DNA from: an uncultured Solirubrobacterales bacterium | Lineage (GTDB): Bacteria; Actinomycetota; Thermoleophilia; Solirubrobacterales; Solirubrobacteraceae | Reading direction: 5' to 3' | Assembly: GCA_963698055.1 (NCBI GenBank) | Contig: OY969118.1 | Span: 133,585-197,584, forward strand | Length of the DNA stretch: 64,000 bases | Shown here: positions 26,176 to 60,380 of the stretch, piece by piece | Layout: each line of letters opens with the position of its first letter | Numbering within the stretch: position 1 is the stretch's first letter | Translations under genes and position numbers: made by a program | Notes under the pieces: model-generated | Database searches by the model: none | Told to the model about the DNA's origin: nothing | What the model saw: the letters and a program-made list of their open reading frames with translations, nothing else

Positions 26176-26871
26176 ATGCGGCCCACCCTTCACCTCGCGC
26201 CCACTCCCGCCATCGAAGCTGTGGATCTGCCAGAGGTCGCGGTGGAGCCGATCAGCGTGGTGCTCGCCGACGATCATGCAGCTATGCGACGTAGTCTGCG
26301 GCTTCTGCTCGCCGGCCAGCGCGATCTCGCGGTCGTCGCCGAAGCTGAAGATCACAACGCGGTGGTGCGTCAAGTCCACGAGTGCCGTCCGCAGGTGCTC
26401 GTGCTCGACATGCGGATGGGCGGTAGCTCGAGCATCGAAGCGCTGCGAACGCTCAGCGATCGCGTGCCCGAGACGCGGATCGTTGCAATCTCGATGGAAG
26501 ACACGCCGGCCTTCGCCCAGCGCGCGCTGACAGCGGGGGCACTCGGCTTTGTCGCCAAGGATCTTGCCGATACCGAGCTGGCGCAGGCGATCCGGGCCGC
26601 CGCCGCTGACCGCGAGTTCATCAGTCCGCGCGTCGCGGCGCGGCTCAGCGCGATGCACCGTTCGCTCACCGATCACATGCTCACACTGCGTGAGGTCGAG
26701 GTGCTGCGCCTGATCGCCTTCGGCCACACGAGCGTCGAGATCGCGCGCAAACTCCAGCTCTCGCCGCGCACAATCGAGACACACCGAGCCAACATTCACA
26801 AGAAGCTCGGATTTCCTACGCGCGCCGAGCTGGTCCGCTATGCGCTACGACGCGGCCTGATCGGCGGGTGA
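26176..26871 (+). CDS. NarL/NreC-type response regulator
   Basis: LADDHAAMR, VLDMRM and TIETHRANI motifs. Confidence 0.9.
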   Translation: MRPTLHLAPTPAIEAVDLPEVAVEPISVVLADDHAAMRRSLRLLLAGQRDLAVVAEAEDHNAVVRQVHECRPQVLVLDMRMGGSSSIEALRTLSDRVPETRIVAISMEDTPAFAQRALTAGALGFVAKDLADTELAQAIRAAAADREFISPRVAARLSAMHRSLTDHMLTLREVEVLRLIAFGHTSVEIARKLQLSPRTIETHRANIHKKLGFPTRAELVRYALRRGLIGG

Positions 26872-28557
26872 CATCGCGGCCGGCTCGCTCGCATGCCGCA
26901 CGGGTAGCCGTGCGCTGAGAAGCGTCCCTCCGCTGCCTGATGAGATGCGCATCGAGCCGCCGGCGAGACTCACGCGCTCGCTCATCCCGGCCAGGCCAAA
27001 CCCACGCTCGACGCTCGCCTGGTCAAAGCCCACGCCGTCATCCTCGACCTCGATCAGGAGCTCGCCGTCAGGCTCGGCGACCGTCACCCGCACGCGCCCA
27101 GCTTTGGCGTGCTTGACCACGTTCGTCAGCGCCTCCTGCACGAGCCGATACGCAGCCGTCTCGAGCTCGGGGTCCAGGCGCCCGCCGCCTGCGCCTGCGA
27201 GTCCCAGCGCCAGGTCGCGCTCGATCTCCAGCTCACTCTGCTCGGCGCAGCGATCCAGCAGCGCTTCGATCGCCACGGACAGGCCAAGCTCATCGAGGGC
27301 GGCGGGGCGCAACTCGGTGATGATCGAACGCAGGTTTGCGATCTCACGCTCAATCCGCACGACCGCCTCGCGCATCGCCTCCCGCGCGGGCTCGGGCTCG
27401 TCGCGCCGCAGCGCCGCAGCGAGCAGCAGGCGCAGGCCCCCCAGGCCCTGCAACGTCTCGTCGTGGAGCTCTCGCGCCCAGCGTCTGCGCTCCTCGTCTG
27501 CTGCCGCCACCGACGCGCGCAGCCGGTCTGCGAGCACGCTCTGCGCAAGCGCGACCGCGGTCGCGGCGCTCGCCGCGAATACCCGCAGCATCTGCTCGTC
27601 GTCCTCGGTGAAGGTCGCGCTTTGCTCACCACGATCGAACGCCGCGAGCACTCCGACCGCCTCGCCGCGGTAAAGCATCGGCACGAGCAGCGCCGTGCGC
27701 GCGTCACGCACACCGAAGTTCGTCGGCGCGATGCCCAGACGCGCATTGACGTCAGTGATCCGCTCGGCGCGGCCGCGCTCGAGGACCAGCCCTGATGTCG
27801 AACCGACGATTGGCAGCCGTGCGCCACGGCGCTCCTCGGCGTGACCCGCGCTCGCATGCACGACCAGCTCCTCGCCGTCACGCAGCATGATCACGAGGCT
27901 GCGCGCTCCGACCAGCGCGCGGCCGCGCTTGGCGATCAGCTCGAGTACGTGCTCGAGTGCGATCTCGCCACCGATCGCGACCGCGACGTCGCGCGTGGCC
28001 TCCAGGCCGCGGACCGCTTTCTCGAGCTCCTGGCGACGCTGCTCGCTCGTCTCGTAAAGGCGTGCGTTCTCAATCGCCACCGCCGCCCAGTCGGCCAGGA
28101 TCACGACGGCCTCCTCGTCACGCTCGCTGAAGTCTCCGTCGTCCTTCTCGGTCAGGTAGAGGTTCCCCCACGTCTCGCCGCGCACCACCACGGGCACGCC
28201 GAGGAAGCTGTGCATCACGGGATGTCCGACGGGAAAGCCGTAGCTACGCGGGTGCGCGCCGACATCGTCGAGGCGCAACGGCTCGGGGTGCTCGATCAGC
28301 ACACCGAGCACCCCACGCCCACGCGGCAGCTCGCCGACCTTGCGACGGGTCTCCTCGTCGAAGCCCGACGTCAGGAACTGAGCGAGCTCGGTGCGGCGCT
28401 CGTTAAGCACGCCAATCGCGGCATAGCGAGCCCCGGTAATCTCGCGCGCCGTCTCAAGAACGCGGTCCAGCACGATCTTCAGGTCGAGCTCCGTGACAAG
28501 CGAGCGACCCACCTCCAGCAAGCGGCGCAGCCAGAGGTCGTCGGCAGCTGGGCCCAT
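26845..28557 (-). CDS. DosS/DevS-like double-GAF cytoplasmic sensor kinase
   Basis: GRGVLG...SYGFPVGHPVMHSFLGVP...GNLYLTEK matches DosS GAF-A including the haem-ligand His; ELHD, EALTN and DDGVG; no TM segment. Confidence 0.88.
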   Translation of the reverse strand: MGPAADDLWLRRLLEVGRSLVTELDLKIVLDRVLETAREITGARYAAIGVLNERRTELAQFLTSGFDEETRRKVGELPRGRGVLGVLIEHPEPLRLDDVGAHPRSYGFPVGHPVMHSFLGVPVVVRGETWGNLYLTEKDDGDFSERDEEAVVILADWAAVAIENARLYETSEQRRQELEKAVRGLEATRDVAVAIGGEIALEHVLELIAKRGRALVGARSLVIMLRDGEELVVHASAGHAEERRGARLPIVGSTSGLVLERGRAERITDVNARLGIAPTNFGVRDARTALLVPMLYRGEAVGVLAAFDRGEQSATFTEDDEQMLRVFAASAATAVALAQSVLADRLRASVAAADEERRRWARELHDETLQGLGGLRLLLAAALRRDEPEPAREAMREAVVRIEREIANLRSIITELRPAALDELGLSVAIEALLDRCAEQSELEIERDLALGLAGAGGGRLDPELETAAYRLVQEALTNVVKHAKAGRVRVTVAEPDGELLIEVEDDGVGFDQASVERGFGLAGMSERVSLAGGSMRISSGSGGTLLSARLPVRHASEPAAMSPADQAAS

Positions 28558-28992: not shown

Positions 28993-30141
28993 ATGACCAG
29001 CCAAGACTCCTCATCCAAGCTTCGTGTCCTGATTGTGGGCGGCGGCGTGGCCGCGCTTGAGACTGCGCTTGCCCTGCGCGAGCTCGCCCCAGGGCTCACC
29101 GATACCACGGTGCTCGCACCCAACAGCGAGTTCCTGTACCGCCCCCTGACCGTGCGCGAGCCTTTTGCCTACCCGCAGGCACGACGCTATCCGCTCGCGC
29201 CGATCGTCGCCGACGCGGGTGCCGCGCTCCTAAGCGACGAGCTCGCCTGGGTCGAGCCGGCCAAGCGTCTCGCGCACACGACGGCGGAGACCGCAATCGC
29301 TTATGACGTGCTCGTGCTCGCGATGGGCGCACGCATCACCGCTCGCTACGAGCACGCGATCACGATCGACGATCGCCGGCTCGATGAGGCGCTGCACGGG
29401 CTCATCCAGGACATCGAGGGCGGCTACGTCGCGAGCGTCGCGTTCGTGGCACCCGCCCGTATGGCGTGGCCGCTGCCGCTGTACGAGCTCGCGCTGATGA
29501 CGGCCGCGCGCGCCTATGACATGAACATCGAGCTGGCTACGACCGTGGTAACACCCGAGGACCGACCGCTGGCGATCTTCGGGCTGAACGCCAGCGACGC
29601 CATCGGCGGACTGCTCGAACAGGCCAAGATCAAGGCGATCACCTCCGCCTACGTGGAGGTGCCCCACACGGGCGAGCTCGTCATCAACCCGGGAGACCGC
29701 CACCTGCACGTCGATCGCGTGGTCGCGCTGCCTGAGCTCTACGGCCCGAGCATCCGCGGCGTACCCGCAAGCAGCCACGGCTTTCTGCATGTCGATGAGC
29801 ACTGCCGGCTGCTGCACGATGAGCACATCTACGCCGCGGGCGACGCGATCGAGTTCGCGATCAAGCATGGAGGCCTCGCCGCACAGCAGGCCGACGCGGT
29901 CGCGCAGGCGATCGCCGCGCAGGCCGGTGCGAAGATCACGCCCGAGCCTTTTCATCCCGTGATCCGCGGGATGCTCCTGACCGGTGGCGAGCCGCGCTAC
30001 CTGACCGCACGCATCACCGGCGGCGCCGGTTTCAGCTCAGAGATCAGCGCGGAGCCGACCTGGTCGCCCCCGAGCAAGATCGCGGCGCGCTACCTCGCGC
30101 CCTACCTGGACGCGCTCGATCACGCCTCCGTGAAGGCATGA
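28993..30141 (+). CDS. SQR/NDH-2-like FAD-dependent oxidoreductase
   Basis: VLIVGGGVAA, YDVLVLAMG, IYAAGD and KHGGLAAQQA motifs. Confidence 0.85.
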   Translation: MTSQDSSSKLRVLIVGGGVAALETALALRELAPGLTDTTVLAPNSEFLYRPLTVREPFAYPQARRYPLAPIVADAGAALLSDELAWVEPAKRLAHTTAETAIAYDVLVLAMGARITARYEHAITIDDRRLDEALHGLIQDIEGGYVASVAFVAPARMAWPLPLYELALMTAARAYDMNIELATTVVTPEDRPLAIFGLNASDAIGGLLEQAKIKAITSAYVEVPHTGELVINPGDRHLHVDRVVALPELYGPSIRGVPASSHGFLHVDEHCRLLHDEHIYAAGDAIEFAIKHGGLAAQQADAVAQAIAAQAGAKITPEPFHPVIRGMLLTGGEPRYLTARITGGAGFSSEISAEPTWSPPSKIAARYLAPYLDALDHASVKA

Positions 30142-30593
30142 TCGCCGAGGCAAACGGCGCAGGGCGCAGGCGCTGCCTGGCGGTGGGCTTCGACCGTGAC
30201 GAGAGCTCGCGCTGCGCGGCCGAGTGGGCCGCGCACGAGCTGCTGCCTGACGGCGAGCTCGTGCTCGTACACGCGTGCCGACCCCTGCACACGCCGCCCT
30301 CGCCGATCGCGAGCACCCATGAGCGTGAGCGGCTCGGCCGTGCGATCGTCGATGAGTTCCTGCTCGAGGGTGAGAGCTCGATGCGCGATCTCGAGCTGGC
30401 CGTCGAGATCCTCGACGCGGACCCCGTGACGGCACTGCTCGATGCTGCACAACGCCACGATGCCGATGCGATCGTCGTGGGCAGCGAGCGACACTCGCGC
30501 GTACAGCGAGCGCTGGGCATCGTCACCACGGGGCTGCTTGAGCGCGCGCCCATCCCGGTGATCGCGGTGCCGCAGCGCGCGCTCAGCCGCTGA
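30138..30593 (+). CDS. Universal stress protein
   Basis: LAVGFD, IVVGS and LLERAPIPVIAVP motifs. Confidence 0.85.
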   Translation: MIAEANGAGRRRCLAVGFDRDESSRCAAEWAAHELLPDGELVLVHACRPLHTPPSPIASTHERERLGRAIVDEFLLEGESSMRDLELAVEILDADPVTALLDAAQRHDADAIVVGSERHSRVQRALGIVTTGLLERAPIPVIAVPQRALSR

Positions 30594-31400: not shown

Positions 31401-32468
31401 TCATGCCGCGGCGCGGCGAGGCAGCGGCGCGTCGGCGAGCAGCTCGAGCACGGCCGACTCGACGCGCGCGCGGATCCGCGTGTCGGCCAGATCGGGGCCG
31501 TCGTGTGCCAGCGGGCCGAGCGTCGCGGCGATCGTCACGTGCGCTTCAAAGCGATCGATCACGCGCGGATCCACGTAGGAGGCGCGGCACACCGCCGGTG
31601 TGTTGCCGAGATAGGCGGCGACCGTCTTGATCGCTTGGCTGACCGCCCGCGCGGTGGCCGTCTTGCTCTTGCTCGGGTGCTCCGCCGCCGCGCCCGCAAG
31701 CGCGACCGCCGCGAGCACGCTCGCGTTCCAGGTACGAAAGTCCTTCGCGGTGAACTCCCCGCCTGTGTGCTGCTTGATGTAGGCGTTGACGTCCTCGGGG
31801 TGCAGCTCCACCCAGCGCCTCTCGTCGCGATAGGCGAGCAGCTGCGTGCCCCCACGACGACGCTTCAGCGCGGTGACGATGCGCAGGGCATCGACGTCGG
31901 CGATCGCCTGTACGCGGCGCTGCCCGGACTTCGCCGGGAAGTCGAAGATCAGCAGCCCGTCTTCGATCGATACGTGCTCCCGACGCATCGTCGTGAGCCC
32001 GTAGGAGTCGTTGCGCTCGGCGTAGTCCTCGGAGCCGATGCGGAAGAAGCCGAGGTCGAGTAGCCGCACCGCACACGCGAGCACACGCGGACGTGAGAGC
32101 TCCTCGCCCGTCCCGTCGGCGGCGAAGCGCAGCTCGCGCGCGACGCGCCGGCGCAGCCGCGGCAGCGCCTCGCCGAAGGCCAGCATCGAGTCGTACTTGC
32201 GCCGGTCACGGTGTGCCCGCCAGCGCTCGTGGTAGAGGTACTGCTTACGCGCAGCCGCATCCAGACCCGTCGCCTGGAGATGCCCGAGCGGGTCCATGCA
32301 GATCCACACCTCGCGCCAGGCCGGCGGGATCGCGAGCTCTGCGATGCGCTCGAGGACCTCGGGGTCGTCGATGCGCACGCCCGCGGGATCGCGGTATTCG
32401 AAGCCGCGGCCCCGACGGCGCCGGGCGATGCCGGGCGCCGCACAGCTCGATTTTCGCAGGCGGGGCAT
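31401..32468 (-). CDS. DNA topoisomerase IB (bacterial, poxvirus-like)
   Basis: AIPPAW, GHLQATG, RKQYLYH, FRIG, AKSG, KDFRTW and LGNTPAVCRASY (catalytic Tyr). Confidence 0.93.
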   Translation of the reverse strand: MPRLRKSSCAAPGIARRRRGRGFEYRDPAGVRIDDPEVLERIAELAIPPAWREVWICMDPLGHLQATGLDAAARKQYLYHERWRAHRDRRKYDSMLAFGEALPRLRRRVARELRFAADGTGEELSRPRVLACAVRLLDLGFFRIGSEDYAERNDSYGLTTMRREHVSIEDGLLIFDFPAKSGQRRVQAIADVDALRIVTALKRRRGGTQLLAYRDERRWVELHPEDVNAYIKQHTGGEFTAKDFRTWNASVLAAVALAGAAAEHPSKSKTATARAVSQAIKTVAAYLGNTPAVCRASYVDPRVIDRFEAHVTIAATLGPLAHDGPDLADTRIRARVESAVLELLADAPLPRRAAA

Positions 32469-32564
32469 GGCCGAAGTGATACCCGCTGCGCACGATTCTC
32501 GATCAACGCGGCCCGAAAGTCGACGCCGACGGTGAGATTGCGCTTGAACGGGTAGAGCAAAGAC

Positions 32565-33095
32565 ATGTCGAGCACCCACACGCCTCCTCGCGACAGCCAG
32601 GCCGGCGTCGATCATTCCCTGACCGCGGGTTACGCGCCCCACGAGCATCGTCCCCTCGCCAGCTACGCCACGCTCACGGGCGTCTTTGGAGTTGGCGTCG
32701 GGGGAGCGTTGCTCGCGCTCCGTGCCAGCGGACGCGAGCTTCCGCAGCAGCTCAGCGTCGGCGATCTCGCGTTGCTGGGTGTCGCCTCGCACAAGCTCAG
32801 CCGGATGCTCACCAAGGACAAGGCCACGAGCTTCCTGCGCGCACCCTTCACGCGGCTACAGGGCAACGCGGGCCATGCCGAGCTGGACGAGGAGCCACGC
32901 GGCGTAGGCGCCCGGCGCGCGATCGGCGAACTGCTGGTCTGCCCCTACTGCCTGGCGCAGTGGATCACCGCCGCGATGAGCATCAGCCTTGTTACCCAAC
33001 CGCGCCTCACACGCTTCGTGGCCGGCATCTATGCGGAGTTGACGCTCGCAGACTTCCTGCAGCTCGCATACCGCGCCGCCGAGGAGCGGGCGTGA
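32565..33095 (+). CDS. DUF1360-family membrane protein
   Basis: HKLSRMLTKDKATSFLRAPF and GELLVCPYC..W motifs. Confidence 0.8.
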   Translation: MSSTHTPPRDSQAGVDHSLTAGYAPHEHRPLASYATLTGVFGVGVGGALLALRASGRELPQQLSVGDLALLGVASHKLSRMLTKDKATSFLRAPFTRLQGNAGHAELDEEPRGVGARRAIGELLVCPYCLAQWITAAMSISLVTQPRLTRFVAGIYAELTLADFLQLAYRAAEERA

Positions 33096-33099
33096 GGGC

Positions 33100-33714
33100 T
33101 TGACGCGCGCCGCCGTCGTCGTGGACGGGCATGGTTTCAGGACATCAGCCGCAGGGAATCAAGAGCGCGTGCAGCGGGGGCCGCTATTCCTCACTTTCGA
33201 TGACGGGCCCGACGAGCACTGGACCCCCCGCATCCTTGAGGAGCTCGAGCGTTGCGATGCCCGCGCCACCTTCTTCGTCGTCGGCGAGCGCGTCCGTGCT
33301 GCGCCCGAGCTCGTCGCAGCGGTCAGCGACGCGGGCCACGAGGTAGCGCTGCACTGCGATCGCCACATTCGCCACACCGATCTCAGCGAGGATGAGATCG
33401 AGGCCGATACGGTCTCCGCGCTGGCTTCGCTCGCGCTGCTCGGCCGGCGCCCGCGACTGTGGCGGACGCCGTGGGGCATATGCACTCCGGCGAGCCTGCG
33501 TGTGGCTGAGCGCTACGGGCTCGAGCTCATCCATTGGAGCTTCGACACCCACGACTGGCGCGGCGACTCCCCCGCGCAAGCCCTCGCCGACATCGACGGT
33601 GCGCTCGGGGCGAATGCGATCGTCCTGATGCACGACGCGATTGGCCCCGGCGCGCGGCGCGCCGGCTGCGAGAACACGCTCGCGCTGATTGCACCACTGT
33701 TGGCGGCCGCATGA
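33100..33714 (+). CDS. NodB-type (CE4) polysaccharide deacetylase
   Basis: All five CE4 motifs: TFDDGP, HCDRH, RTPWG, DTHDW and LMHD. Confidence 0.9.
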   Translation: MTRAAVVVDGHGFRTSAAGNQERVQRGPLFLTFDDGPDEHWTPRILEELERCDARATFFVVGERVRAAPELVAAVSDAGHEVALHCDRHIRHTDLSEDEIEADTVSALASLALLGRRPRLWRTPWGICTPASLRVAERYGLELIHWSFDTHDWRGDSPAQALADIDGALGANAIVLMHDAIGPGARRAGCENTLALIAPLLAAA

Positions 33715-34799
33715 GCATCGAGACGATCGGCGCGCCGTCAGCGCCCACGAGGAGCCTGACGCTCGCGGGCGCGCTTCAGCAGATCGCGGCGTGTGCCGAC
33801 GCGCTCGATGCGCACCCCCGATTTCCGGCGGAGAACCTCGAAAGCTTGCGTGACGCCGGCGTCACGCAAGCTGCGGCGCAGCGCTCGCACACGAGCCTCG
33901 CGAGCGAGATCGCGCTCGTGCGAGCGGTTGCGGGGGTCGACGCCTCCACTGCGCGGATCCTCGACGGACACTTCAACGGCGTCGAGCGGCTCGCGCTCGG
34001 AGCGCCCGCGGAGCTGCGCGAGCAGGAGCTCGGCGAGATCGCGCGGGGCTCGCTGCTACTCGGAGTGTGGGGGGCAGACCCGCTGCCCAGCGAGGGCTCG
34101 CCGGCGAACATCGAGCCGACGCGCGACGGCGCGCTGCTGTTGCAGGGCACGAAGACTTTCTGCTCAGGCGCGGGCGGCGTACAGCGGGCGCTCGTCGTCG
34201 CACGCGACCGCGACGGCGCGCGGCGCCTGGCCTACGTCGATGCACGTGAGGGCCTGGAGATCGACCGCAGCTGGTATCGGGCATCGGGTTTGCGCTCCTC
34301 CGAGAGCCATCTCGTGCGTTTCCATGACACGCCGGTGCTGAGCGTGCTGGGCGGCCCTGAGGAGCTGATGCGCGAGCCCTATATCTCCCGCGACGGCGTG
34401 CGCACCGCGGCGAGCTGGGCCGGCATCGCGGACTGCATTTTCGCGGCAGCTCTCGGCGTGCTCGGCCAGGGCAGCCCAGACGAGCTGCGCCTACACGCGA
34501 TCGGGCGGATGCGCGTTGCCCTGGGAACGATCGATCGCTGGTTGGACCATGCGGCGATCGGCCTCGAGGAGGGCAGCGCGGAGCCCGCGGCGCTCGCCGG
34601 CGAAACGCGCGTGGCGGTCGCCGCCGCCGCGCGGCGCATCGCGGCCGAGGCTGCCGGCGCCTGCGGCGCAAGAGCGCTCACACGCGGCGGCGAGCTCGAC
34701 CGCGCTAGACGTGATCTCGACCTGTTCCTGCTCCAGCACCGGCTCGAGCCAAAGCTCGTGCAGCTCGGACGCGAATCGCTGCCAGCAGCACGGCCATGA
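33711..34799 (+). CDS. Acyl-CoA dehydrogenase-fold flavoprotein
   Basis: ARILDGHFN, LLGVWGAD, GTKTFCSGA, WYRASGLRSSES and RARRDLDLFLLQ motifs; ATGA overlap with the deacetylase. Confidence 0.82.
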   Translation: MSIETIGAPSAPTRSLTLAGALQQIAACADALDAHPRFPAENLESLRDAGVTQAAAQRSHTSLASEIALVRAVAGVDASTARILDGHFNGVERLALGAPAELREQELGEIARGSLLLGVWGADPLPSEGSPANIEPTRDGALLLQGTKTFCSGAGGVQRALVVARDRDGARRLAYVDAREGLEIDRSWYRASGLRSSESHLVRFHDTPVLSVLGGPEELMREPYISRDGVRTAASWAGIADCIFAAALGVLGQGSPDELRLHAIGRMRVALGTIDRWLDHAAIGLEEGSAEPAALAGETRVAVAAAARRIAAEAAGACGARALTRGGELDRARRDLDLFLLQHRLEPKLVQLGRESLPAARP

Positions 34800-35383
34800 G
34801 CTCCCTGCCTGCCCGCAGTCGGACTGGAGCCGCGCACTTCGACGAGCTCTACGAGTCGAGCGCAGACCCCTGGAACTACGCCTCTAGCGCGTATGAGCAC
34901 GAGAAGTACGCGGCCACGCTCGCGGCCGCCGGTCCAGGGCCCCACGCGCGGGCTCTGGAGGTCGGCTGCTCGATCGGGATCTTCACCGAGCGCCTCGCGC
35001 CGAGCTGCGCCGAGCTCGTCGCGCTCGACTTCTCCACCCGCGCGCTGGAGCTCGCCCGCGCACGACTCGCGGGGCTTGCGAACGTCGAGCTCATCCACGG
35101 CAGCTTCCCGGAGCAGGTGCCCGCGGGCGAGTGGGACCTGATCGTGTGCTCGGAGGTCCTCTACTACCTCGATCCCCCGGCCTTCGCGCAGGCGCTTGGG
35201 TGGTTGCGCACGCGCCTGGAGCATGGCGCACGCGTCGTGGCCGTCAGCTGGCGTGGCGTTGGCACGAGTGAGCCGCTGAGGGGCGATGACGTGCACGACC
35301 TGCTCGCCGTAGAGCTCGCCGAGCTACACACGCTCCAGACGCGCACTACCGGCTACCGCCTCGATCGCTTCGACGGATCATGA
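34796..35383 (+). CDS. NodS-family SAM methyltransferase
   Basis: FDELY...DPWNY....YEHEKY, LEVGCSIG and SEVLYYL motifs. Confidence 0.87.
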   Translation: MSSLPARSRTGAAHFDELYESSADPWNYASSAYEHEKYAATLAAAGPGPHARALEVGCSIGIFTERLAPSCAELVALDFSTRALELARARLAGLANVELIHGSFPEQVPAGEWDLIVCSEVLYYLDPPAFAQALGWLRTRLEHGARVVAVSWRGVGTSEPLRGDDVHDLLAVELAELHTLQTRTTGYRLDRFDGS

Positions 35384-37155
35384 GCGCTGAGCGGATCGCG
35401 ACGGCCGGCACGGCGCAGACGGATCTCGCGAGGGCGCGTACCGTCGGAGCGAGCGACACCCGGGCTCTACCCGCCCCCCATCCCTCGCTGCGTGCGGTGG
35501 TGGTCATCCCGGCGCGCGATGAGGCGCATCGCATCGAGGCGTGCCTGCACGCGCTGAGGGTGCAGACGGGGCTGGGCCCGGAGGAGTACGAGGTGATCGT
35601 CGTGCTCGACGGCTGCCGTGACGCGACAGCTGAGCTGATCGCGCGCTACGCCGCCGAGCAGCCCGCTTTCACCCTGCACGCGGTTGCGATGTCCCGCGCC
35701 GCCGGCGTTGGACGCGCGCGGCGCTGCGGCATGGATCTCGCCCATCGCCGCCTACGCTTGCTCGCGCGCGGCGAGGGCCTGATCGCGAGCACCGATGCCG
35801 ACAGCGTCGTCGCCAGCGACTGGCTCAGGCGCCAACTCGAGCTCGTCGGCGCGGGCGCACGCGCGATCGGCGGCCACATCGAGCTCGACGCACTCGAGGC
35901 CACAGGCCTGTCGAGCATCGCGTTGAGCGAGCGCGAGCGCAGAGCAGGCGAGCGTCTGGCGACTGTTCTCGGCCGCGACCAGCGCGGGGCGTTGACCGAG
36001 CATCACCAGTTCAGCGGTGCCTCGCTGGCGCTCACCGCCGACGCCTACCGCGACTGCGGCGGTCTGCCAGTGCGCGCGGCGCTGGAGGATGAGGCCTTGG
36101 AGGCCGAGCTCGCCTCACTCGGCATCCCGATCCATCGCAGCCGCAGCGTGCGCGTGGTGACCTCCGCACGACGCGATGGGCGTGCACCACGCGGGCTGGC
36201 GCGCGATCTCGCGCGCGTCGATTGGCGTGCGCGCCGTAGCTACCGCGCCGAGGAGTTTCCGCTCGAGCGGCTGTTGACAGCCAAGAGCGAGTCGGTCGCG
36301 CTCGTGCTCCCGGCCCGTGAAGTCGCAGCCACGCTCGGTCCGATCGCGCGGAGCGCCGCCGCGCTGCGTGACCGCGGGCTATTGGACGAGGTGCTCGTGG
36401 TCGATGCCTGCTCGCGTGACGGCAGCGCCGGCATCGCCGCCGAAGCAGGGATCGAGGTGTTGCAAGAGGATCAGATCGAGCGCGAGCTCGGCCCGGCGCG
36501 CGGGAAGGGCGATGCGATGTGGCGGGCGCTCAGCACGCTCGACAGCGACATCGTCGCCTACGCCGATGCGGACACGGAGGACTTCGGCGAGCAGTTCCTC
36601 ACGGGCCTGCTTGGCCCGCTGTTGTGCGACCCCGACATACAGTTCGTCAAGGGCTTCTTCCGACGTCCCTTCCGAGAGGGCGCCACGCTGCTGCCAGAAG
36701 GCGGCGGCCGCGTCACGGAGCTGATGGCGCGACCGCTCCTGAACCTCCACGCGCCTGAGCTCGCGGTCTTTGACCAGCCGCTCGCGGGAGAGATCGCGGC
36801 ACGGCGCGATCTCCTCGAGCGGATTCCCTTCAGCGCCGGCTACGGCGTGGAGATCGCGATGCTGATCGACGCCTGGCGGGTCGTCGGCCTCGACGGCCTC
36901 GCGCAGGTGGACCTGGGCGTGCGCCAGAACCGTCACCAACCGTTGCGCGACCTTTCGGCGATGTCCTACGCGGTGCTCGTCGCCGCCAGCACGAGACTGC
37001 TCGGCGCGGACTTCGCCGACGCCAACGCCGTCGGCTCGCTGTCGCTCCCGCCCCTGCACGGCGAGCAGCAGATGGAGTCGCGCCGCGTTCCGATCGAGGA
37101 GCGCCCGGCGCTGCGCGCCTACCGCGAGCAGCGCGCCGCGGCCGAGCGCGCTTAG
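35380..37155 (+). CDS. GT2 glycosyltransferase fused to glucosyl-3-phosphoglycerate synthase (GpgS)
   Basis: N half: VIPARDE, TDADS, GASL, ED and VVTSARRDGRA. C half: GKGDAMWRAL, DAD, GGGRVTELMARPLL, QPLAGE, GYGVEIAMLID and RQNRHQPL. Confidence 0.85.
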   Translation: MSAERIATAGTAQTDLARARTVGASDTRALPAPHPSLRAVVVIPARDEAHRIEACLHALRVQTGLGPEEYEVIVVLDGCRDATAELIARYAAEQPAFTLHAVAMSRAAGVGRARRCGMDLAHRRLRLLARGEGLIASTDADSVVASDWLRRQLELVGAGARAIGGHIELDALEATGLSSIALSERERRAGERLATVLGRDQRGALTEHHQFSGASLALTADAYRDCGGLPVRAALEDEALEAELASLGIPIHRSRSVRVVTSARRDGRAPRGLARDLARVDWRARRSYRAEEFPLERLLTAKSESVALVLPAREVAATLGPIARSAAALRDRGLLDEVLVVDACSRDGSAGIAAEAGIEVLQEDQIERELGPARGKGDAMWRALSTLDSDIVAYADADTEDFGEQFLTGLLGPLLCDPDIQFVKGFFRRPFREGATLLPEGGGRVTELMARPLLNLHAPELAVFDQPLAGEIAARRDLLERIPFSAGYGVEIAMLIDAWRVVGLDGLAQVDLGVRQNRHQPLRDLSAMSYAVLVAASTRLLGADFADANAVGSLSLPPLHGEQQMESRRVPIEERPALRAYREQRAAAERA

Positions 37156-37619
37156 CCTTTGCTGTCCTCCGCGGCGTACTGTGGCTCATCGCCGTGGTTG
37201 CCGTCGCGCGCCCCGGTCCCGTCTTCGCCGCGCGCGGCGAGCACGAAGATCTCAGCGTTGTAGTCAGGGTCGTAGTGAGCGGCGCTCATAAAGGCGACGA
37301 CGCTGCGCTGCAGCTCCTCCTCGATGACCTGCCTGAAACGGTCGTTCATTACTTCCTGGAGCTGGGCACGGAGCTCCATCACCGCGCGCGTACGCCCATC
37401 CTCGATCAGCGTCTTCTCCGCCTGGGTGTAGCCGCCGCTGAGCAGCACGACGACCAGCTCGCCCGAGTAATACGTGCGCGCCTGCGTCGGACCCTTGCCG
37501 TAGTGCTCCTTCAGCAGCCCCACGATCCGACGCGAGATCGCCGCGAGTGCGGCTCCTGATTCGGAGGGCCCGCTCTCCTCGAGCCCGCGGCCCGAGGTGG
37601 GCGACCCGTCGCGATTCAT
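37152..37619 (-). CDS. DUF2294/MpsC-family protein
   Basis: ISRRIVGLLKEHYGKGPTQARTY and EKTL motifs; start uncertain. Confidence 0.75.
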   Translation of the reverse strand: MNRDGSPTSGRGLEESGPSESGAALAAISRRIVGLLKEHYGKGPTQARTYYSGELVVVLLSGGYTQAEKTLIEDGRTRAVMELRAQLQEVMNDRFRQVIEEELQRSVVAFMSAAHYDPDYNAEIFVLAARGEDGTGARDGNHGDEPQYAAEDSKG

Positions 37620-37724
37620 CGTCGCCTCAGAGGGCGTCCGTGGCATGCGTGCTGAGCCGAGGGCGCCATCGCTGCACACGGTACTCGACATAGAGCTCAC
37701 ATAACGAAACTTCTCGCGAGGCGC

Positions 37725-40703: not shown

Positions 40704-41298
40704 ATGGCCGACCCACAGGCAATCGTCGCGGTCCTCGCCGGTGGAGGCGCAAAGCGGATGGGCGGCGCCAAGGCCACGGCGATGCTCGCCGGGCAACCGT
40801 TGATCGCACGACCGCTCGCGGCGGCACGCGAGGCGGGGCTCGAGGCGATCGTCGTCGCCAAGGCCTCGACTGTGCTGCCGCCGCTGTCCGAGCAGGTGCT
40901 GCACGAGCCCGAGCTTCCGCTACATCCACTGCGCGGCGTGCTGAGCGCGCTTGAGCGGGTGGGCGAGCGCTCGCCGACGCCGGCGGTGCTGATCCTCGGC
41001 TGCGACATGCCGTTCTTGACCGGGGAGCTGCTCGGCTGGCTGGCGATCGTGCGCGGCGCCGCGATCGCCAAGGTCGGACGGTCGCCTGCAGCCGCTGCTC
41101 GCGCGCTGCCATCCACTGCATCGCGGCATCCTGCAGGCGGCGCTCGCCGAGCAGAGCTCGCTCGCCGCGGCGCTCTGCTCGCTCGAACCGCGCGTCCTCG
41201 ACGAGCGCGAGCTGAGCCGCTTCGGCGACCCCGAGCGGCTGTGCTTCAACGTCAACGGCCCCGCGGACCTGGCCCAGGCAGAGGCCTGGCTCGCATGA
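40704..41298 (+). CDS. mobA: Molybdenum cofactor guanylyltransferase (one frameshift near 41080)
   Basis: VLAGGGAKRMGGAKA, GCDMPF, then QPLLAR and FNVN in the shifted frame. Confidence 0.82.
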
Positions 41299-41306
41299 GC
41301 GCCGGG

Positions 41307-41555
41307 CTAGGAAGGGCGCGGCTCGCCGGGCTCGGCAGCGGGGCTCGCCCCCTCGATCTCCGCCGCGATCGCGCGCAGTTGCTCGAGCGAGAGCTGCGAG
41401 CGTCCGGCGATCCAGCAGGCCAGCGGCGCGGCGGTCCGTTCCGAGGCGTGCGCGGCCGTGCCGGCGAGATCGAGCAGCTCGCGGATCTCCTGCACCGACG
41501 GCGCCTGCACGCCCGCCGCGGCGGCGAAGGCGGCAATCCACTCATCGCGGCTCAT
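41307..41555 (-). CDS. DUF6457-like small protein
   Basis: [19 protein letters not shown] motif; this family is typically next to or fused with MobA. Confidence 0.7.
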
Positions 41556-41599
41556 CTGCCCCAGCTTAGTCGCGCTGCGATCGCGGGTAGTGCATGCGG

Positions 41600-42629
41600 G
41601 TGAGCACGATCGATCGCTTGGGAAGGCCGCTGCGCGACCTGCGCATCTCGGTCACCGACCGCTGCAACATGCGCTGCCGCTACTGCATGCCGCGCGAGGC
41701 CTTCGGCCCGGGCCATGCCTTCTTGGAGCGCAGCGAGCTGCTCAGCTTCGAGGAGATCGCGCGTGCTCGCCGCGATCGCTCGCGGCGGAGGGCGTGGGAA
41801 AGATCCGGCTCACCGGCGGTGAGCCGCTGCTGCGTCGCGGCCTCGAGCGGCTCGTCGAGATGCTCGCTGCGCTGCCGGGGATCGAGGACATCGCGCTCAC
41901 GACCAACGGCCTGCTGCTCGCGGGCCGAGCCGCAGTCGCTGGCAGACGCGGGCCTCAGCCGCGTGACGGTCAGCCTCGACGCGCTCGATGAGCCGACGTT
42001 GCGTGCGATGAGCGACACCCCGCGTCGCGCCCGCGCGCATCCTCGCCGGCATCGAGGCAGCGGGCGCGGCGGGCCTCGCAGCCCGTGAAGGTCAACATGG
42101 TCGTGCGCCGCGGCGTCAACGACCACTGCGTGCACGGCGATGGCCGAGCACTTCCGCGGGCGCGGCGAGGTGCTGCGCTTCATCGAGTACATGGACGTCG
42201 GCGCGACCAACGGCTGGCGCATGCAGGAGGTCGTCCCGGCGGGCGGAGATCCTCGCCACGATCGCCGCGCGCTGGCCGCTCGAGCCGCTGCCGCAGCTGC
42301 GCGCCGGAGAGGTCGCGACACGCTACCGCTACCTCGACGGCGCCGGCGAGATCGGCCTGATCCACTCGGTCAGCGAGCCCTTCTGCGGTGGCTGCACGCG
42401 CGCGCGACTGTCCGCGGACGGGCGCCTGTTCACGTGCCTGTTCGCACGCGAGGGGCACGATCTGCGCGCGCTGCTGCGCTCCGGTGTCGCGCAGCCAGAG
42501 CTCGCCGAGCGCCTCCGCGCGATCTGGAGAGGCCGGACGGACCGCTATTCGGCCGAGCGCTCCGCGGAGAGCGCGGGCGCCCGCGATGAGCAACCGGCGA
42601 AGGTCGAGATGTCCTACATCGGCGGCTGA
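41600..42629 (+). CDS. moaA: GTP 3',8-cyclase (frameshifted)
   Basis: [40 protein letters not shown] and C-terminal MSYIGG. Confidence 0.92.
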
Positions 42630-43435
42630 AGCGCGCCGAGCAGCTTGATCGCGAGCAGCAGCGCGCCTGCGACGATCACGAGGATCGCTGACAGCGCGAG
42701 CGCGGCGGGGAAGTTCGAGGCGAACTCGTCGTAGATCGCAAGCGGCACGGTCTGGGTGACGCCCTGGTAGGAGCCCGCGAACATCAGCGTGGCGCCGAAC
42801 TCGCCGAGCGCACGCGCCCAGGCGAGCGCCAGCCCCGCCAGCAACGCGGGGCGCGCGACCGGGATCGCCACGCGCAGGAAGGTCTGCGCCTCACGCGCGC
42901 CGAGCCCGCGTGAGGCCTCCAGGTAGGTGCGGTCGATCGCGGCGAAGGCCGCGTGCGCCTGGCGGATGTAGAAGGGCGAGGCGACGAACACGAGCGCGAC
43001 CACCACGGCCGCGGTGCTGAGCACGAGTTGCAGGTGCGCAGTCGGCGAGCGCACCGCCGAGCACGCCCTCGGGCCCGAGCGCGGCGAGCAGGCCGATCCC
43101 GGCGACGGCCGGCGGCAGCACGAGCGGGAGCTCGATCAGCGTGAGCACGACCGCGTGAAAGCGCGCGGGGCGCAGTGCGAGCCGATAGGCGGCGGGCGTG
43201 CCGACGAGCACGATGATCGCGATCGCGATCGTGCTCGTCTCGAGGCTCAGGCGCAGCGCGTCGCAGCGACTCCGCTTCGCCGAGGCTCGCGAGCAGCTGC
43301 GCCGGCGAGGTGTCGAGAAAGATCGCGAGGACCGGGAGCACGAGGAAGCCGAGCGTGAGCGCCAGCGCGAGGAAGATCAGCGCGGCGAACCAGCGACGAG
43401 CAGCGCAGGCCTCGGTGAGCGAGCGAGACCGTCAC
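42614..43435 (-). CDS. modB: Molybdate ABC permease (frameshifted)
   Basis: LPLVLPPAVAG, ARALGEFGAT and TQTVPLAIY motifs. Confidence 0.87.
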
Positions 43436-44195
43436 CTGGGCGGCGGCAAGAAGCCGGCGGCGAGCAGCTCGGGCCTGGCCGGACCCACGCAACAGGCCGG
43501 CGATGAAGGCGCGGGCCTCGGCCCGGTGGCGCGTGCCGTTGACGATCGCGATCCCATAGGCGACTTGCGGCTGTAGCGCAGGCGGGAGCGCGATCGCACG
43601 TAGCTGCCCGGCCGTCGCGCTAACGTCGGTCGCGTACAGGAACCCGGCATCGACCGCGCCCTCGGTGAGCTTGCCGACGATCCCCGTCACGTCCGGCTCA
43701 CGGTCGCGGACATTGGCCAGCAGCAGCTGACGCTTTGCGGGCGTCAGACGCGCGAGCACCTTTTCTGTGTAGGCGCCGACCGGCACCGTCGGCGTACCGA
43801 GCGCGATGCTGACGCCCGGGCGCTCGAGGTCGGCAATGCTCGCGATCTTCGAGGCCCTGGGCACGGCGAGCACGAGGCGGTTGGCCGCAAAGATGACCGG
43901 CCGTTCGACGAGGCCCTCCGCGAACAGCGCGTCCGGCAGCTGAGGTGTTCGCCGACGCGAATACGTCGGGTCGGATGCCCTGTTCGATCTGGGCGGCGAG
44001 CGTGTCGGACCCCGCGAAGGAGAAGCGCGTGCGCGCGTTGGTGAACGTCTGGCCGTAGGCGGTGAATGCCTTGCGTAGTGAGGCAGCGGCTGAGATGTTG
44101 AGGCTTGCCTTGCCCCCACCGCCGCAGGCGAGCAGCGCGACGACGAGGCTCGCGCCGAGCAGCGTCGCGCACACCTGCAGGACGCGGCGCCTCAC
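43432..44195 (-). CDS. modA: Molybdate-binding lipoprotein (frameshifted)
   Basis: Lipobox LLAC; SAAASL, SFAGSDTL, VPVGAY and VDAGFLYATD motifs. Confidence 0.87.
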
Positions 44196-44596
44196 CTGGT
44201 CCCCCGCTCGACCATCACCGAGGTCGCCTTCACGAGCGCGCTCGCCTCGACGCCGGGGGCAAGGCCGAGCTCGGTGACCGAGTCGCGCGTGATCGCGGCG
44301 GTAACGAGAAACGGACCGGCCTCGATCTCCACGAGCGCCATCACGCCGTCGACCTCGACCGAGCGCACCACGCCGGGGAAGCGGTTGCGCGCCGAGCTGC
44401 GGGTCCCCGTCCGGTGGCGCTGCGGGCGGGCGGCGAGGCGCTGCACCTCGGCGGCGCTCACGCGGCGGTGGTTGCGCTCGTCGCGGTGGGTCCGCAGCTT
44501 GCCGGCTCGGTCCCAGCGACGCAGCGTGTCGACGCTCACGCCGATCGCCACGGCGGCGTCGCCGAGCGAGAGGTCCACTCCCTTTTGCCTAGGCAT
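44192..44596 (-). CDS. MerR-like HTH + TOBE molybdate-responsive regulator
   Basis: GVSVDTLRRW, SSARNRF, ITRDS and VKATSV motifs. Confidence 0.85.
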   Translation of the reverse strand: MPRQKGVDLSLGDAAVAIGVSVDTLRRWDRAGKLRTHRDERNHRRVSAAEVQRLAARPQRHRTGTRSSARNRFPGVVRSVEVDGVMALVEIEAGPFLVTAAITRDSVTELGLAPGVEASALVKATSVMVERGTR

Positions 44597-44674
44597 TACC
44601 CAGGCAGTGTATTGATCGTGGGCGAGCGCTCGCGGCTGGTAGCGGACGTCCTCGCGCGCTCGGCGGAGGCATCC

Positions 44675-44701
44675 GTTTTGGTTGCCGCACGAAGCGGGTA
44701 G
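44675..44701 (+). promoter_or_regulatory. SigF/SigB-type promoter GTTT-N17-GGGTAG upstream of the fdh operon
   Basis: Matches the actinobacterial SigF/SigB consensus; 14 nt before the ATG. Confidence 0.5.
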
Positions 44702-44715
44702 GGTCCCAGCGAGCC

Positions 44716-47700
44716 ATGCAAAACCCCGCGCGCGATTGGCCGTTGCTGCGTCAGCTGAAAGGCGACGATTCGCTGGGCCGCGGCGCAGCGGTGAAGTCGC
44801 GGCGCAGCGCTGGACTATCCAATCGTGTGGCTGAAGCGGATGAGCTCGTCAAGTCGGTCTGCCCGTACTGCGCTGTCGGCTGCGCGCAGAACGTCTACGT
44901 CAAGGACGGTCACGTCGTGCAGATCGAGGGCGACCCTGACTCGCCCGTCAGCCGTGGGCGTCTCTGTCCCAAGGGCTCGGCCACGCTACAGCTGACGACC
45001 GGCGAGGCGCGCGAGCACAGCGTCCTTTACCGCCGCCCGTACGGCAGCGACTGGGAGCATCTCGACCTCGAGACGGCGCTGGATATGGTCGCTGAGAAAG
45101 TCATCGAGACCCGACGCGAGAGCTGGGAATGGGAGAGCGAGGGCAAGCGCGTGCGGCGCAGCCTCGGCATCGCGAGCCTCGGTGGCGCGACGCTCGACAA
45201 CGAGGAGAACTACCTGATCAAGAAGCTCTGGAGCGCGCTCGGGATCGTCCAGGTCGAGAACCAGGCGCGTGTCTGCCACAGCTCGACCGTCGTCGGCCTC
45301 GGCACCTCCTTCGGCCGCGGCGGCGCAACGACCTTCCCCGGCGATCTGCAGAACGCCGACTGCATCGTGATCGAGGGCTCGAACATGGCCGAGGCGCATC
45401 CGGTCGCCTTCCAGTGGGTGATGGAGGCCAAGGCACGCGGCGCAACCGTGATCCACGTCGATCCGCACTTCAGCCGCACGAGCGCGCTGGCAGACATCTT
45501 CGTGCCGCTGCGCACCGGCACCGACATCGCCTTCCTCGGCGCGATCATCAACTACGTCCTGGAAAACGACCGCTGGTTCCACGACTACGTGGTTGCTTAC
45601 ACAAACGCCTCCACGATCATCGAGGAGGACTTCCGCGACACCGAGGACCTCGACGGCCTCTTCTCGGGCTTCGACGCGACGAGCGGGGATTACGACTACG
45701 CGAGCTGGCAGTACGAGGGCGCGCCCGTCGCGGCCGCCTCGGGCAACCGCGATCGCTATAGCGAAACAGAGGGCTCAGGGCATGCGATGCGCGAGTCGAG
45801 CCACGGCGAGACGGCGGGCTCGGGCGGGCAGAGCGTGCAGGGCGAGCCCAAGCGCGATGAGACGCTGAAGGACCCGCGCTGCGTCTTTCAGATCCTCAAA
45901 CGCCACTACTCGCGCTACACGCCCGCGATGGTGGCCGAGACCTGCGGCGTGCCCGAGGACGTCTTTCAGCAGGTGTGCGAGAAGATCTGTGAGAGCTCCG
46001 ACCGCGACCACACGACCGCCTTCGTCTACGCGGTCGGCTGGACGCAGCACACCGTTGGCTCGCAGTACATCCGCTGCGCTTCGATCCTGCAGCTTTTGCT
46101 CGGCAACATCGGGCGCCCGGGCGGCGGCATCATGGCGATGCGCGGGCACGCGAGCATCCAGGGATCGAGTGACATCCCCACGCTGTACGACCTGCTGCCC
46201 GGCTACCTGCCGATGCCCCACGCCCACGAATATGAGGACCTCGACTCCTACATCAAGGCCGACTCCGCGGAGAAGGGCTTCTGGGGCAACATGAGCGCCT
46301 ACACCGTCAGCCTGCTGAAGGCATGGTGGGGTGACGCAGCGAGCGCCGCGAACGACTACTGCTTCGACTACCTGCCGCGCATCACCGGAGCACACGGCAC
46401 CTACGACACCGTGATGGCGCAGCTCGCGGGTAAGTGCCGCGGCTACTTCCTGATGGGACAGAACCCCGCGGTGGGCTCGGCCAACAACCGCATGCAGCGG
46501 CTGGCGATGGCCAAGCTCGACTGGCTGGTCGTGCGCGACTTCTCGTTAATTGAGAGCGCGACATGGTGGAAGGACGGCCCTGAGATAGAGACGGAGGAGA
46601 TGCGCAGTGAGGAGATCGCCACCGAGGTCTTCTTCTTCCCCGCGGCAGCGCACATCGAGAAGGACGGAACCTTCACGAACACCCAACGGCTGCTGCAATG
46701 GCACCACAAGGCACAGGAGCCCGCAGGCGACGCGCGCTCGGATCTGTGGTTCATGTTCCACCTTGGGCGCCTGATCCGCGAGAAGCTCGCTGGCTCAAGC
46801 GAGGAGATGGACCGCCCGATTCTCGATCTCACCTGGGACTACCCGACGAGCGGGCCGCTGCGCGAGCCGAGCGCCGAGGCAGTCCTGCGCGAGATCAACG
46901 GCAGCGGGCCCGACGGGGCGCTCGTCGAGCTATGAGCAGCTGCGCGACGACGGCTCGACGGCCTGTGGCTGCTGGATCTACTGCGGCGTCTTCGCCGAGG
47001 GCGTCAACCAGTCGGCGCGACGCACGCCGCGCGAGCAGCAGAACTGGACGGGCAGCGAGTGGGGCTGGGCGTGGCCCGCGAACCGGCGCGTGCTTTACAA
47101 CCGCGCCTCGGCGGACCCCGCGGGCAAGCCTTGGAGCGAGCGCAAGGCGCTCGTCTGGTGGGACCCCGCGCAGGCCAAGTGGGTAGGTCACGACACGCCT
47201 GACTTCCAGGCCGAAAAGGCTCCTGACTTCAAGCCCGCCAAGGACGCGAAAGGTCCCGACGCGATCGCCGGCGCCGAGCCGTTCATCATGCAGGGCGACG
47301 GGCGCGGCTGGTTGTATGCGCCCGGCCGGCCTGGCCGACGGGCCGCTGCCGACGCACTACGAGCCACAGGACTCGCCGCTTGAGAACCCGCTCTACGGCC
47401 AGCGTGCAAACCCGGCGCGCAAGACCTATCCGCACCCCCACAACCGCTACCACCCGAGCGGCGATGAGCCAGGCGCGGAGGTGTTCCCGTTCGTCGTCAC
47501 GACCTACCGCCTGACCGAGCACTTCACGGCAGGCGGCATGACGCGCTGGTCTCCTTACCTCTCAGAGCTTCAGCCGGAGTTCTTCTGCGAGGTCTCACCC
47601 GAGCTCGCCGCCGAGCGCGAGCTCGAGCACGCCGGCTGGGCGACGATCGTGACCGCCCGCGGGGCGATCGAGGCGCGCGTGCTCGTGACCGATCGCATGA

Positions 47701-55817: not shown

Positions 55818-56222
55818 ATGCCACAAGCGACCGAGGACCGCAACCGCCGGATGTTGCGCACGCGCGACGCGATGGATCGGGCGTTTGCACAGCCGCTCGA
55901 CGTACCGACGCTTGCGCGCCTCGCACACGTCTCACCAGCTCACTTCAGCCGCCAGTTCCGTGCGGTGTTCGGCGAGACGCCACACCGCTATCTACAGCGC
56001 CGACGGGTCGAGCGCGCGATGGAGCTGCTGCGAGAAACGGGCTCTCCAGTCACGGAGATCTGCTTCGACGTCGGCTTCAACAGCCTTGGAACCTTCAGCC
56101 GTACGTTCCGCGCGATCATCGGCGAGTCACCATCTGCCTATCGCGCGCGGTTCGCTGCCGGCAACACAGCCCTGCGCGTGCCGACCTGCTGGGCGATGGC
56201 CTGGATGCGACCGGCCGGTTAG
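55818..56222 (+). CDS. Single-domain AraC-family regulator
   Basis: HFSRQFRAVFGETP and VGFNSLGTFSRTF motifs. Confidence 0.9.
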   Translation: MPQATEDRNRRMLRTRDAMDRAFAQPLDVPTLARLAHVSPAHFSRQFRAVFGETPHRYLQRRRVERAMELLRETGSPVTEICFDVGFNSLGTFSRTFRAIIGESPSAYRARFAAGNTALRVPTCWAMAWMRPAG

Positions 56223-60360: not shown

Positions 60361-60380
60361 CGCCGCACGACTTGACCGGC

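Follow-up and report, generated by a model that had tools for sequence, protein, structure and literature searches.

A 64,000-nucleotide stretch of contig OY969118.1 from an uncultured Solirubrobacterales bacterium (the window, used here for that whole stretch) carries an operon whose last gene fuses glycosyltransferases of two different families, GT2 and GT81, behind genes for three enzymes that could tailor an amino sugar. The source contig is a single 3.38-Mb genome, scored 71.6% complete. Five + strand frames lie back to back (Table 1), and the last four, which encode a CE4 deacetylase, a flavoprotein with the acyl-CoA dehydrogenase (ACAD) fold, a NodS-like methyltransferase and the fusion protein, are coupled by three ATGA overlaps at 33711-33714, 34796-34799 and 35380-35383. 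An earlier note on this DNA, made from the sequence alone, had described these four genes as translationally coupled and the last of them as one 591-residue frame joining a GT2 domain to GpgS (glucosyl-3-phosphoglycerate synthase), and both the overlaps and profile scans of the two halves bear this description out. The remaining frame encodes a small DUF1360 membrane protein and is the probable first gene of the operon; its stop sits 4 nt ahead of the TTG at 33100, a CE4 start that is itself not certain.

Table 1. Genes and domains of the operon and its neighbours, with window coordinates and the matches that identify them
Feature	Coordinates	Strand	Evidence
Pyr_redox_2 oxidoreductase gene and universal stress protein gene, ~2.5 kb upstream	28993..30593	+	Pfam matches
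DUF1360 small membrane protein gene	32565..33095	+	PF07098, 104.8 bits
CE4 (NodB-homology) deacetylase, cytoplasmic	33100..33714	+	PF01522 (Polysacc_deac_1), 86.7 bits (cut-off 23.1)
ACAD-fold flavoprotein	33711..34799	+	SfnB/DszC best sequence matches; AlphaFold2 model
NodS-like class I S-adenosylmethionine-dependent methyltransferase	34796..35383	+	PF05401 (NodS), 70.9 bits (cut-off 24)
GT2::GT81 fusion gene, whole frame	35380..37155	+	
GT2 (inverting GT-A) half of the fusion, residues 1-275	35380..36204	+	PF00535 (Glycos_transf_2), 87 bits (cut-off 23.3)
GT81 glycosyl-3-phosphoglycerate synthase half, residues 276-591	36205..37155	+	NF010496 (glucosyl-3-phosphoglycerate synthase), 343.8 bits (cut-off 262)
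MpsC-like gene, convergent neighbour	37152..37700	-	PF10057, 69.6 bits

The two halves of the fusion protein meet near residue 276 (nucleotide ~36205) with essentially no linker, and hydrophobic or membrane segments were found neither in this protein nor in the ~400-residue GT2 relatives that were checked. The GT2 profile covers residues 41-166 and the synthase profile residues 281-582, the latter scoring 327.9 bits in the genome-wide search. In the GT2 half the DxD motif D139-A-D141 is invariant and the E236-D237 pair nearly so (at least 90%) across 100 homologues, and the AlphaFold2 (AF2) model of this half, with a predicted local distance difference test score (pLDDT) of 93, has a generic GT-A fold whose Foldseek matches reach a template modelling score (TM) of at most 0.60 and an identity of at most 21%. 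The GT81 half scores 269 bits against the MpgS/GpgS of Rubrobacter xylanophilus (3F1Y) and 182-197 bits against mycobacterial GpgS, and its key residues are K376, D396-A-D398, R444-V-T446, L468-A469-G-E471, Y488/E491, H519 and M528. For the Mycobacterium tuberculosis (Mtb) enzyme an Asp134-Lys114-Glu232 network, the DxD motif, Val186/Thr187 for the acceptor carboxylate, Leu209, Tyr229 and Met269 have been described (PMC2581804), and K376, D396/D398, V445/T446, L468, Y488, E491 and M528 align to every residue of that description. The histidine lies two residues later than in Mtb GpgS (RQNRHQ), as it does in 3F1Y. The mycobacterial enzymes have a PLSGE motif, whose serine (Ser210) is argued to keep mannose out (PMC2581804), whereas the GT81 half has PLAGE, not this glucose-specific form, and has both PLAGE and RQNRHQ in common with the Rubrobacter enzyme. 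The glucose specificity assumed in the name given by the earlier note can therefore not be claimed, and the sugar may be mannose. Read in this way, the alignment points to a glycosyl-3-phosphoglycerate synthase domain that may use either glucose or mannose.

The fusion recurs in frame, at 66-68% identity, in three genomes of the same genus, where CE4, ACAD-like and NodS-like genes again precede it. Metagenomic data hold more than 120 independent protein clusters (at 90% identity) that span 92-100% of the fusion query. When the GT2 half was used by itself in an exhaustive HMMER search, most of its closest representatives proved to be joined to a GT81-like domain; the named homologues are Solirubrobacteraceae metagenome-assembled genomes (MAGs). 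A survey of 80 named loci, which covers the close CE4-type clade, shows a conserved order of CE4, ACAD-like, NodS-like, in most cases reductase, and GT2 genes across Solirubrobacteraceae/Solirubrobacterales MAGs, Rubrobacteraceae MAGs, Thermoleophilaceae, Conexibacter, Baekduia and Miltoncostaeaceae. The cultured carriers include Rubrobacter marinus SCSIO 52915, with a degenerate form of the fusion, and Conexibacter stalactiti KCTC 39840 and Conexibacter sp. CPCC 205762, with the unfused form. The operon is an accessory unit with a patchy distribution: the ACAD-like gene is present in 16 of 81 sampled species genomes of the genus (7 of 36 high-quality ones), and among the first 25 genus genomes the same four hold both the fusion and the ACAD-like gene. 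Because this fusion and gene order recur in the three genus genomes, the more than 120 clusters and the 80 named loci, the fusion is neither a chance event nor an assembly error. A single contig that is 71.6% complete, and in which a second GT81 gene is split with in-frame TGA codons, might invite the view that the 591-residue frame is a long-read assembly merger of two genes. We consider such a merger exceedingly improbable, since the same fusion occurs in both short- and long-read assemblies from many studies, 48 of the 80 loci hold intact examples, and there is no linker between the domains.

The deacetylase has all five CE4 motifs (TFDD34-35, H85xxxH89, R122xPW, D149xxDW and LxH178, from the translation read against the 5O6Y alignment), and its closest solved relatives are peptidoglycan N-acetylglucosamine (GlcNAc) deacetylases (5O6Y, 89 bits). 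The NodB equivalog TIGR04243 gives 104.8 bits, so far under its cut-off of 240 that the protein is not a NodB orthologue. The methyltransferase matches the NodS Pfam family over profile positions 15-120 of 201 (the N-terminal 105) and scores 79 bits against the NodS equivalog NF041650, which has a cut-off of 300; its top solved relative is 4ISC (79 bits, uncharacterised), followed by NodS itself (3OFJ, 55 bits). The partial Pfam coverage, the missed equivalog cut-off and the rank of 4ISC above NodS together argue that this protein is not a NodS orthologue. The names NodB and NodS that were first attached to these genes hold at the level of family, CE4 and NodS-like, and not at the level of the equivalogs.

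In relatives of the operon the deacetylase slot can be filled by a different protein. PIG-L occupies it in L024 and L059, the two loci on which the PIG-L versions rest, and CE4 occupies it in L025, L026 and the window, as expected if an intact CE4 enzyme stands in PIG-L's place. Since CE4 and PIG-L are unrelated folds in one slot, de-N-acetylation of a GlcNAc-type sugar appears to be the required chemistry. The GT2 half is 34-45% identical to soluble GT2s of ~400 residues, one of which (P0172, in L059) adjoins ACAD-like, PIG-L and NodS-like genes. The C-terminal extension of 110-150 residues in these ~400-residue proteins was considered as a decayed GT81 domain and rejected (hhalign probability 0.08%). 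The existence elsewhere of a cassette of PIG-L, NodS-like, ACAD-like and GT2 genes, which the earlier note had mentioned, is confirmed by L059 and appears in print only as gene-map context (PMC9020721). The window genes form the same tightly linked set of four enzymes (GT2, deacetylase, NodS-like, ACAD-like), with CE4 replacing PIG-L. We found no paper that names the product, the fusion or the cassette chemistry, the mentions in the literature being confined to gene maps (PMC9020721).

The ACAD-fold protein is matched in Pfam by Acyl-CoA_dh_M only, at 23.4 bits and under the cut-off of 33.3, and it reached no ACAD equivalog cut-off in the NCBIfam scan; its top NCBIfam and Protein Data Bank (PDB) sequence matches are SfnB and DszC. 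With the AF2 model (pLDDT 92), Foldseek ranks the flavin mononucleotide (FMN)-bound DszC/TdsC/MsuC first at TM 0.79-0.84, and the nitrososynthases DnmZ and KijD3 follow at lower rank than these S-oxygenases with a similar score (TM 0.81-0.83). Of the ACAD label in the earlier note the fold stands, as does a resemblance to N-oxygenases, which score similarly; membership of the dehydrogenase family does not, with Pfam under its cut-off and S-oxygenases such as DszC nearest. On the model, the protein is more likely a flavoenzyme of the oxygenase kind than a dehydrogenase, and it may well be the oxygenase component in a flavin monooxygenase of the two-component kind. A two-component oxygenase fits because 69 of the 78 related loci have a Pyr_redox_2/Reductase_C gene situated between those for the NodS-like protein and the GT2 (nine loci and the window are without it), and because the model is nearest to DszC-type monooxygenases.

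The GT81 half has fared differently from locus to locus. It is fused, with no fewer than five of the six checked motifs preserved, in 48 of the 80 loci (50-84% identity) and is absent in 19; a further 11, including all eight fused Rubrobacter copies, are fused but degenerate, with the Lys, DxD, RVTEL and GYGVE lost, one copy is frameshifted and one is cut by a contig end. In a GT81 tree (36 rows, from a quick search) the degenerate domains sit on long branches, and a single origin of the fusion is not separated from multiple origins. A separate GT81 gene lies directly beside the CE4 gene in L140, where the fused domain is absent, and in L141 and L144, where it is dead; the separate copy has all six checked motifs in L140 and five of six in L141 and L144, where the motif reads GYGVD and so lacks the sugar-contacting Glu. 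A stand-alone GT81 is still present elsewhere in genomes whose cluster has no active fused one, and constitutive accumulation of mannosylglycerate has been reported for Rubrobacter species (PMC4148983). Of five complete MAG chromosomes that carry the intact fusion, four have a second, separate GT81, which suggests that the fused one is a dedicated paralogue; G360 and G501 yielded no GT81 other than the fused copy. Domain fusions of several kinds join six enzyme modules. Beyond GT2::GT81 itself, a 754-residue NodS::GT2::GT81 triple fusion (P0148, GCA_035718085.1) is encoded behind genes for PIG-L and a short ACAD-like protein, CE4::ACAD-like fusions make up seven clusters, and reductase::GT2::GT81 is seen as one 1098-residue protein, a single case that may be a gene-calling merge.

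These patterns have to be weighed against an explanation in which the operon yields the very amino-sugar compound that the cassette makes in other phyla, built on an acceptor that has nothing to do with glycerate, the GT81 domain having been fused for co-regulation with a stress solute or as a dimerisation or scaffold module. The 11 loci that keep a GT81-like domain stripped of its Lys, DxD, RVTEL and GYGVE suggest such a non-catalytic role, and the domain is lacking altogether in 19 loci and in the examined PIG-L cassette of L059. A dimer with a defined interface is on record for mycobacterial GpgS (PMC2581804), and stress genes lie nearby, for a universal stress protein (Usp) and a GAF histidine kinase here and for a SpoIIE/GAF protein in the carrier genome G020. 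Strict conservation of the checked motifs in the 48 intact loci tells against it, however, as do the separate GT81 genes of L140, L141 and L144, which are each found at an operon whose own fused domain is dead or missing and so look like compensation for a lost activity, not for a lost scaffold. Nor is the fused copy simply the housekeeping enzyme, given the separate GT81 in four of the five complete genomes. On these grounds we regard a purely structural or regulatory role for GT81 as unlikely, though it is the leading alternative.

We propose instead that the operon is the Thermoleophilia/Rubrobacteria version of a cytoplasmic amino-sugar cassette that is wired to glycosylglycerate synthesis, a tentative reading whose prospects we place somewhat below even. 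In the most economical scheme the GT81 half would first join a nucleoside diphosphate (NDP)-hexose, glucose or mannose, to 3-phosphoglycerate to give hexosyl-3-phosphoglycerate, to which, or to its dephosphorylated form, the inverting GT2 half would add a beta-linked N-acetylhexosamine. The CE4 enzyme would then take off the N-acetyl group, the NodS-like enzyme would methylate the freed amine, and the ACAD-fold enzyme would oxygenate the product with reduced flavin, supplied by the cluster reductase in most relatives and by a host reductase in this genome. We infer every substrate, the order of the steps and the final product from the observed genes, their coupling, the intact motifs, the conservation and the fusion patterns. 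Gene fusion, adjacency and the apparent compensation in L140, L141 and L144 link GT81 activity to the cassette in this clade, and extension of glucosyl-3-phosphoglycerate has precedent in the established mannosylglucosylglycerate (MGG) route (PMC3736172). A hexosyl-(3-phospho)glycerate acceptor in this clade is thus supported, if not proven. The earlier note had taken the fusion as a Rosetta-stone hint that glucosyl-(phospho)glycerate is the acceptor, and that hint gains from the separate GT81 genes, the triple fusion and the MGG precedent and loses from the degenerate and absent domains and from L059. The final product is likely a small stress-related solute or glycoconjugate. Its more specific identification as an N-methylated, possibly N-oxygenated aminohexosyl-hexosyl-glycerate, a member of an undescribed metabolite family of glycosylglycerate-derived stress solutes or redox-active small molecules in soil Thermoleophilia and Rubrobacteria, is doubtful at present.

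Several observations weigh against this proposal. The degenerate and absent GT81 domains (11 and 19 of the 80 loci), together with L059, indicate that GT81 activity is not intrinsic to the cassette, and the ~400-residue GT2 relatives lack GT81, among them the one stand-alone PIG-L cassette whose context was read (L059). GT81 genes are common in the actinobacteria considered here, with or without the cassette (37 of 41 relatives), so that the presence of one elsewhere in a genome is weak support. The GT2 half has no close solved relative, and for that reason neither its donor nor its acceptor can be read from structure. Among the Foldseek matches of the ACAD-like protein, sulfur oxygenases stand ahead of the amino-sugar N-oxygenases, and the scores of true ACADs are almost as high. 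This genome lacks the cluster reductase: a search with the G020 copy found only one 30% identical paralogue, located elsewhere, in a genome that is 71.6% complete. The operon also holds no phosphatase, and TIGR01486, for haloacid dehalogenase (HAD) phosphatases of the mannosyl-3-phosphoglycerate phosphatase (MPGP) type, had no match in this 71.6%-complete genome.

The order of the steps could also be different, with tailoring at the nucleotide-sugar stage, so that UDP-GlcNAc would be deacetylated, N-methylated and N-oxygenated before the GT2 half transfers it onto a hexosyl-(phospho)glycerate made by GT81. The match of the ACAD-fold model to KijD3 and DnmZ, which act on dTDP-amino sugars, would suit this order, and the CE4::ACAD and NodS::GT2::GT81 fusions are compatible with either. 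However, the characterised PIG-L (MshB, BshB) and CE4 (NodB, PgdA) enzymes use glycosides or oligosaccharides and are not known to use UDP-GlcNAc, and NodS methylation comes after NodB, on the oligosaccharide. With known enzymes of these families acting at the glycoside level, tailoring before transfer seems distinctly improbable.

The proposed glycosylglycerate pathway could alternatively supply not a free solute but a primer on which a larger glycoconjugate, intracellular or in the envelope, is built, with the DUF1360 protein serving in localisation or export. Such a role would parallel that of glucosylglycerate in mycobacteria, where GpgS initiates the synthesis of methylglucose lipopolysaccharide (MGLP) (PMC2581804, PMC2674218), and the DUF1360 gene is coupled to the cluster in the window and in L074, where it lies upstream, and adjoins it downstream in G020. 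In most of the other surveyed loci, however, DUF1360 was not detected; polymerising or further glycosyltransferases, acyltransferases and transporters are not conserved over the 80 loci, and all the enzymes are without membrane segments. A primer role is in our judgement very unlikely.

The surroundings of the operon are described here in their own right. On its 3' side the fusion gene converges on an MpsC-like gene, a neighbour that is at most a candidate member of the pathway; L074 has the same convergent arrangement, and several further loci have MpsC-like genes close to the cluster. At 37152-37155 the TAG of the fusion gene (+) overlaps the TAA of the MpsC-like gene (-) in the sequence TTAG, which leaves zero intergenic space and no terminator-like hairpin between the convergent genes. 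A scan of 32300-37500 gave no sigma-70-like promoter or intrinsic terminator patterns, weak evidence in G+C-rich (70%) DNA where almost none are expected by chance. A look for RNA runs containing the operon or the fusion gene returned none. On the 5' side a bacterial type IB DNA topoisomerase gene runs divergently from the operon on the - strand (31401-32792; Topoisom_I 109.6 and Top1B_N_bact 83.2 bits), and a topoisomerase IB gene is also a neighbour of the cluster in G020. The oxidoreductase gene farther upstream (Table 1) differs from the cluster reductase. Stress-signalling genes flank the cluster, with a histidine kinase of the GAF-GAF type together with a universal stress protein at 26845-28557 of the window and a SpoIIE/PP2C-GAF-HATPase_c_2 protein beside the G020 cluster (L021, 3452-5575). 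Farther away, the frames at 40704-46935 encode a MobA-like NTP transferase domain, the first part of a radical SAM domain and a molybdopterin oxidoreductase, and together resemble a molybdenum-cofactor and molybdoenzyme locus; with just 164 residues, the radical SAM frame may be frameshifted. The G+C content falls to 0.58-0.63 at 56000-62000, against ~0.70 in the rest of the window, and this part may be a horizontally acquired island.

Three further observations concern GT81 genes outside the operon. The second, stand-alone GT81 gene of this genome (G000:C1:878419-879377; locus L003, ~1486-2400) is broken into at least two frames with in-frame TGA codons and is either a pseudogene or the result of long-read indel errors; the 71.6% completeness of the single 3.38-Mb contig fits many such frameshifts, and Pfam gave no match on the fragments downstream of this locus. 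The stand-alone GT81 genes of the genus (L013-L016, L018 and L019) read GGGRVNHL, whereas the fused copy, 3F1Y and mycobacterial GpgS read GGGRVTEL, with the Thr binding the acceptor carboxylate, and the stand-alone 'housekeeping' paralogue may therefore differ in how it handles the acceptor. Finally, a 1163-residue protein from a European Nucleotide Archive (ENA) metagenome (P0391) carries a GT81 GpgS-like domain (214 bits) and a glycerate kinase domain (PF02595) in one polypeptide, a fusion that would couple phosphoglycerate supply to glycosylglycerate synthesis.

Every enzyme considered here belongs to a known family, and it is the pathway and its product that may be new. If the proposal is true, the fusion would reveal the acceptor class of an orphan cassette found in multiple phyla. 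Its confirmation would open a new branch in the biology of glycosylglycerate solutes among soil Actinomycetota, which are abundant and poorly studied. The fusion is the first concrete and testable handle on the chemistry of the cassette, and narrows an 'unknown amino-sugar compound' down to a few predicted masses and reactions that could be run in vitro. For the glucosylglycerate (GG) series the calculated neutral monoisotopic masses would be 268.079 for GG, 429.148 for HexN-GG, 443.164 for its N-methyl form and 459.159 with one further O.

Comparison with known systems places the operon between several of them. A cassette of PIG-L, ACAD, methyltransferase and glycosyltransferase genes lies beside blsA in Acinetobacter, known from gene-map context only (PMC9020721, Fig. 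3); its likeness to the present genes is one of annotation, whereas homology of the GT2, NodS-like and ACAD-like proteins is shown for the metagenomic loci L024 and L059. From that unnamed PIG-L cassette the window differs in having CE4, and GT81 instead of the GT2 extension of 110-150 residues, and a reductase gene is usual in its clade. In the MGG pathway of Petrotoga mobilis and Rhodopirellula baltica, GpgS is followed by MggA and then MggB (PMC3736172). There, as proposed here, the product of a GT81 GpgS is extended by a second glycosyltransferase before dephosphorylation, and the genes form an operon in some genomes; but the MGG enzymes are separate proteins that include a dedicated phosphatase and are accompanied by no deacetylase, methyltransferase or flavoenzyme, and the window operon has no phosphatase. 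The R. xylanophilus MpgS/GpgS (3F1Y) is the top solved match to residues 278-540 of the fusion protein, with PLAGE, RQNRHQ, the DxD, the Lys of GKGD and GGGRVTEL in common and a closely similar GY(G/A)VE motif in which the Tyr and Glu are kept, yet it is a stand-alone enzyme, whereas the window GT81 is fused behind a GT2 within a tailoring operon.

The tailoring enzymes have parallels of their own. In Nod-factor synthesis the same three families, as NodC (GT2), NodB (CE4) and NodS, act on a GlcNAc glycoside that is de-N-acetylated and then N-methylated; the window GT2 is soluble, however, there is no NodA acyltransferase, and the ACAD-fold protein, the reductase and GT81 are without a Nod counterpart. 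Mycothiol and bacillithiol synthesis (MshA/MshB and BshA/BshB) likewise attaches GlcNAc to a small hydroxy acid or polyol and then de-N-acetylates the glycoside, but does so with GT4 enzymes, PIG-L and a cysteine ligase, in whose place the window operon would have methylation and oxygenation. DszC/TdsC, MsuC, KijD3 and DnmZ share the fold of the ACAD-like protein (TM 0.79-0.84), at a sequence identity of only 17-23%, and in its relatives a gene for a separate NAD(P)H reductase accompanies it.

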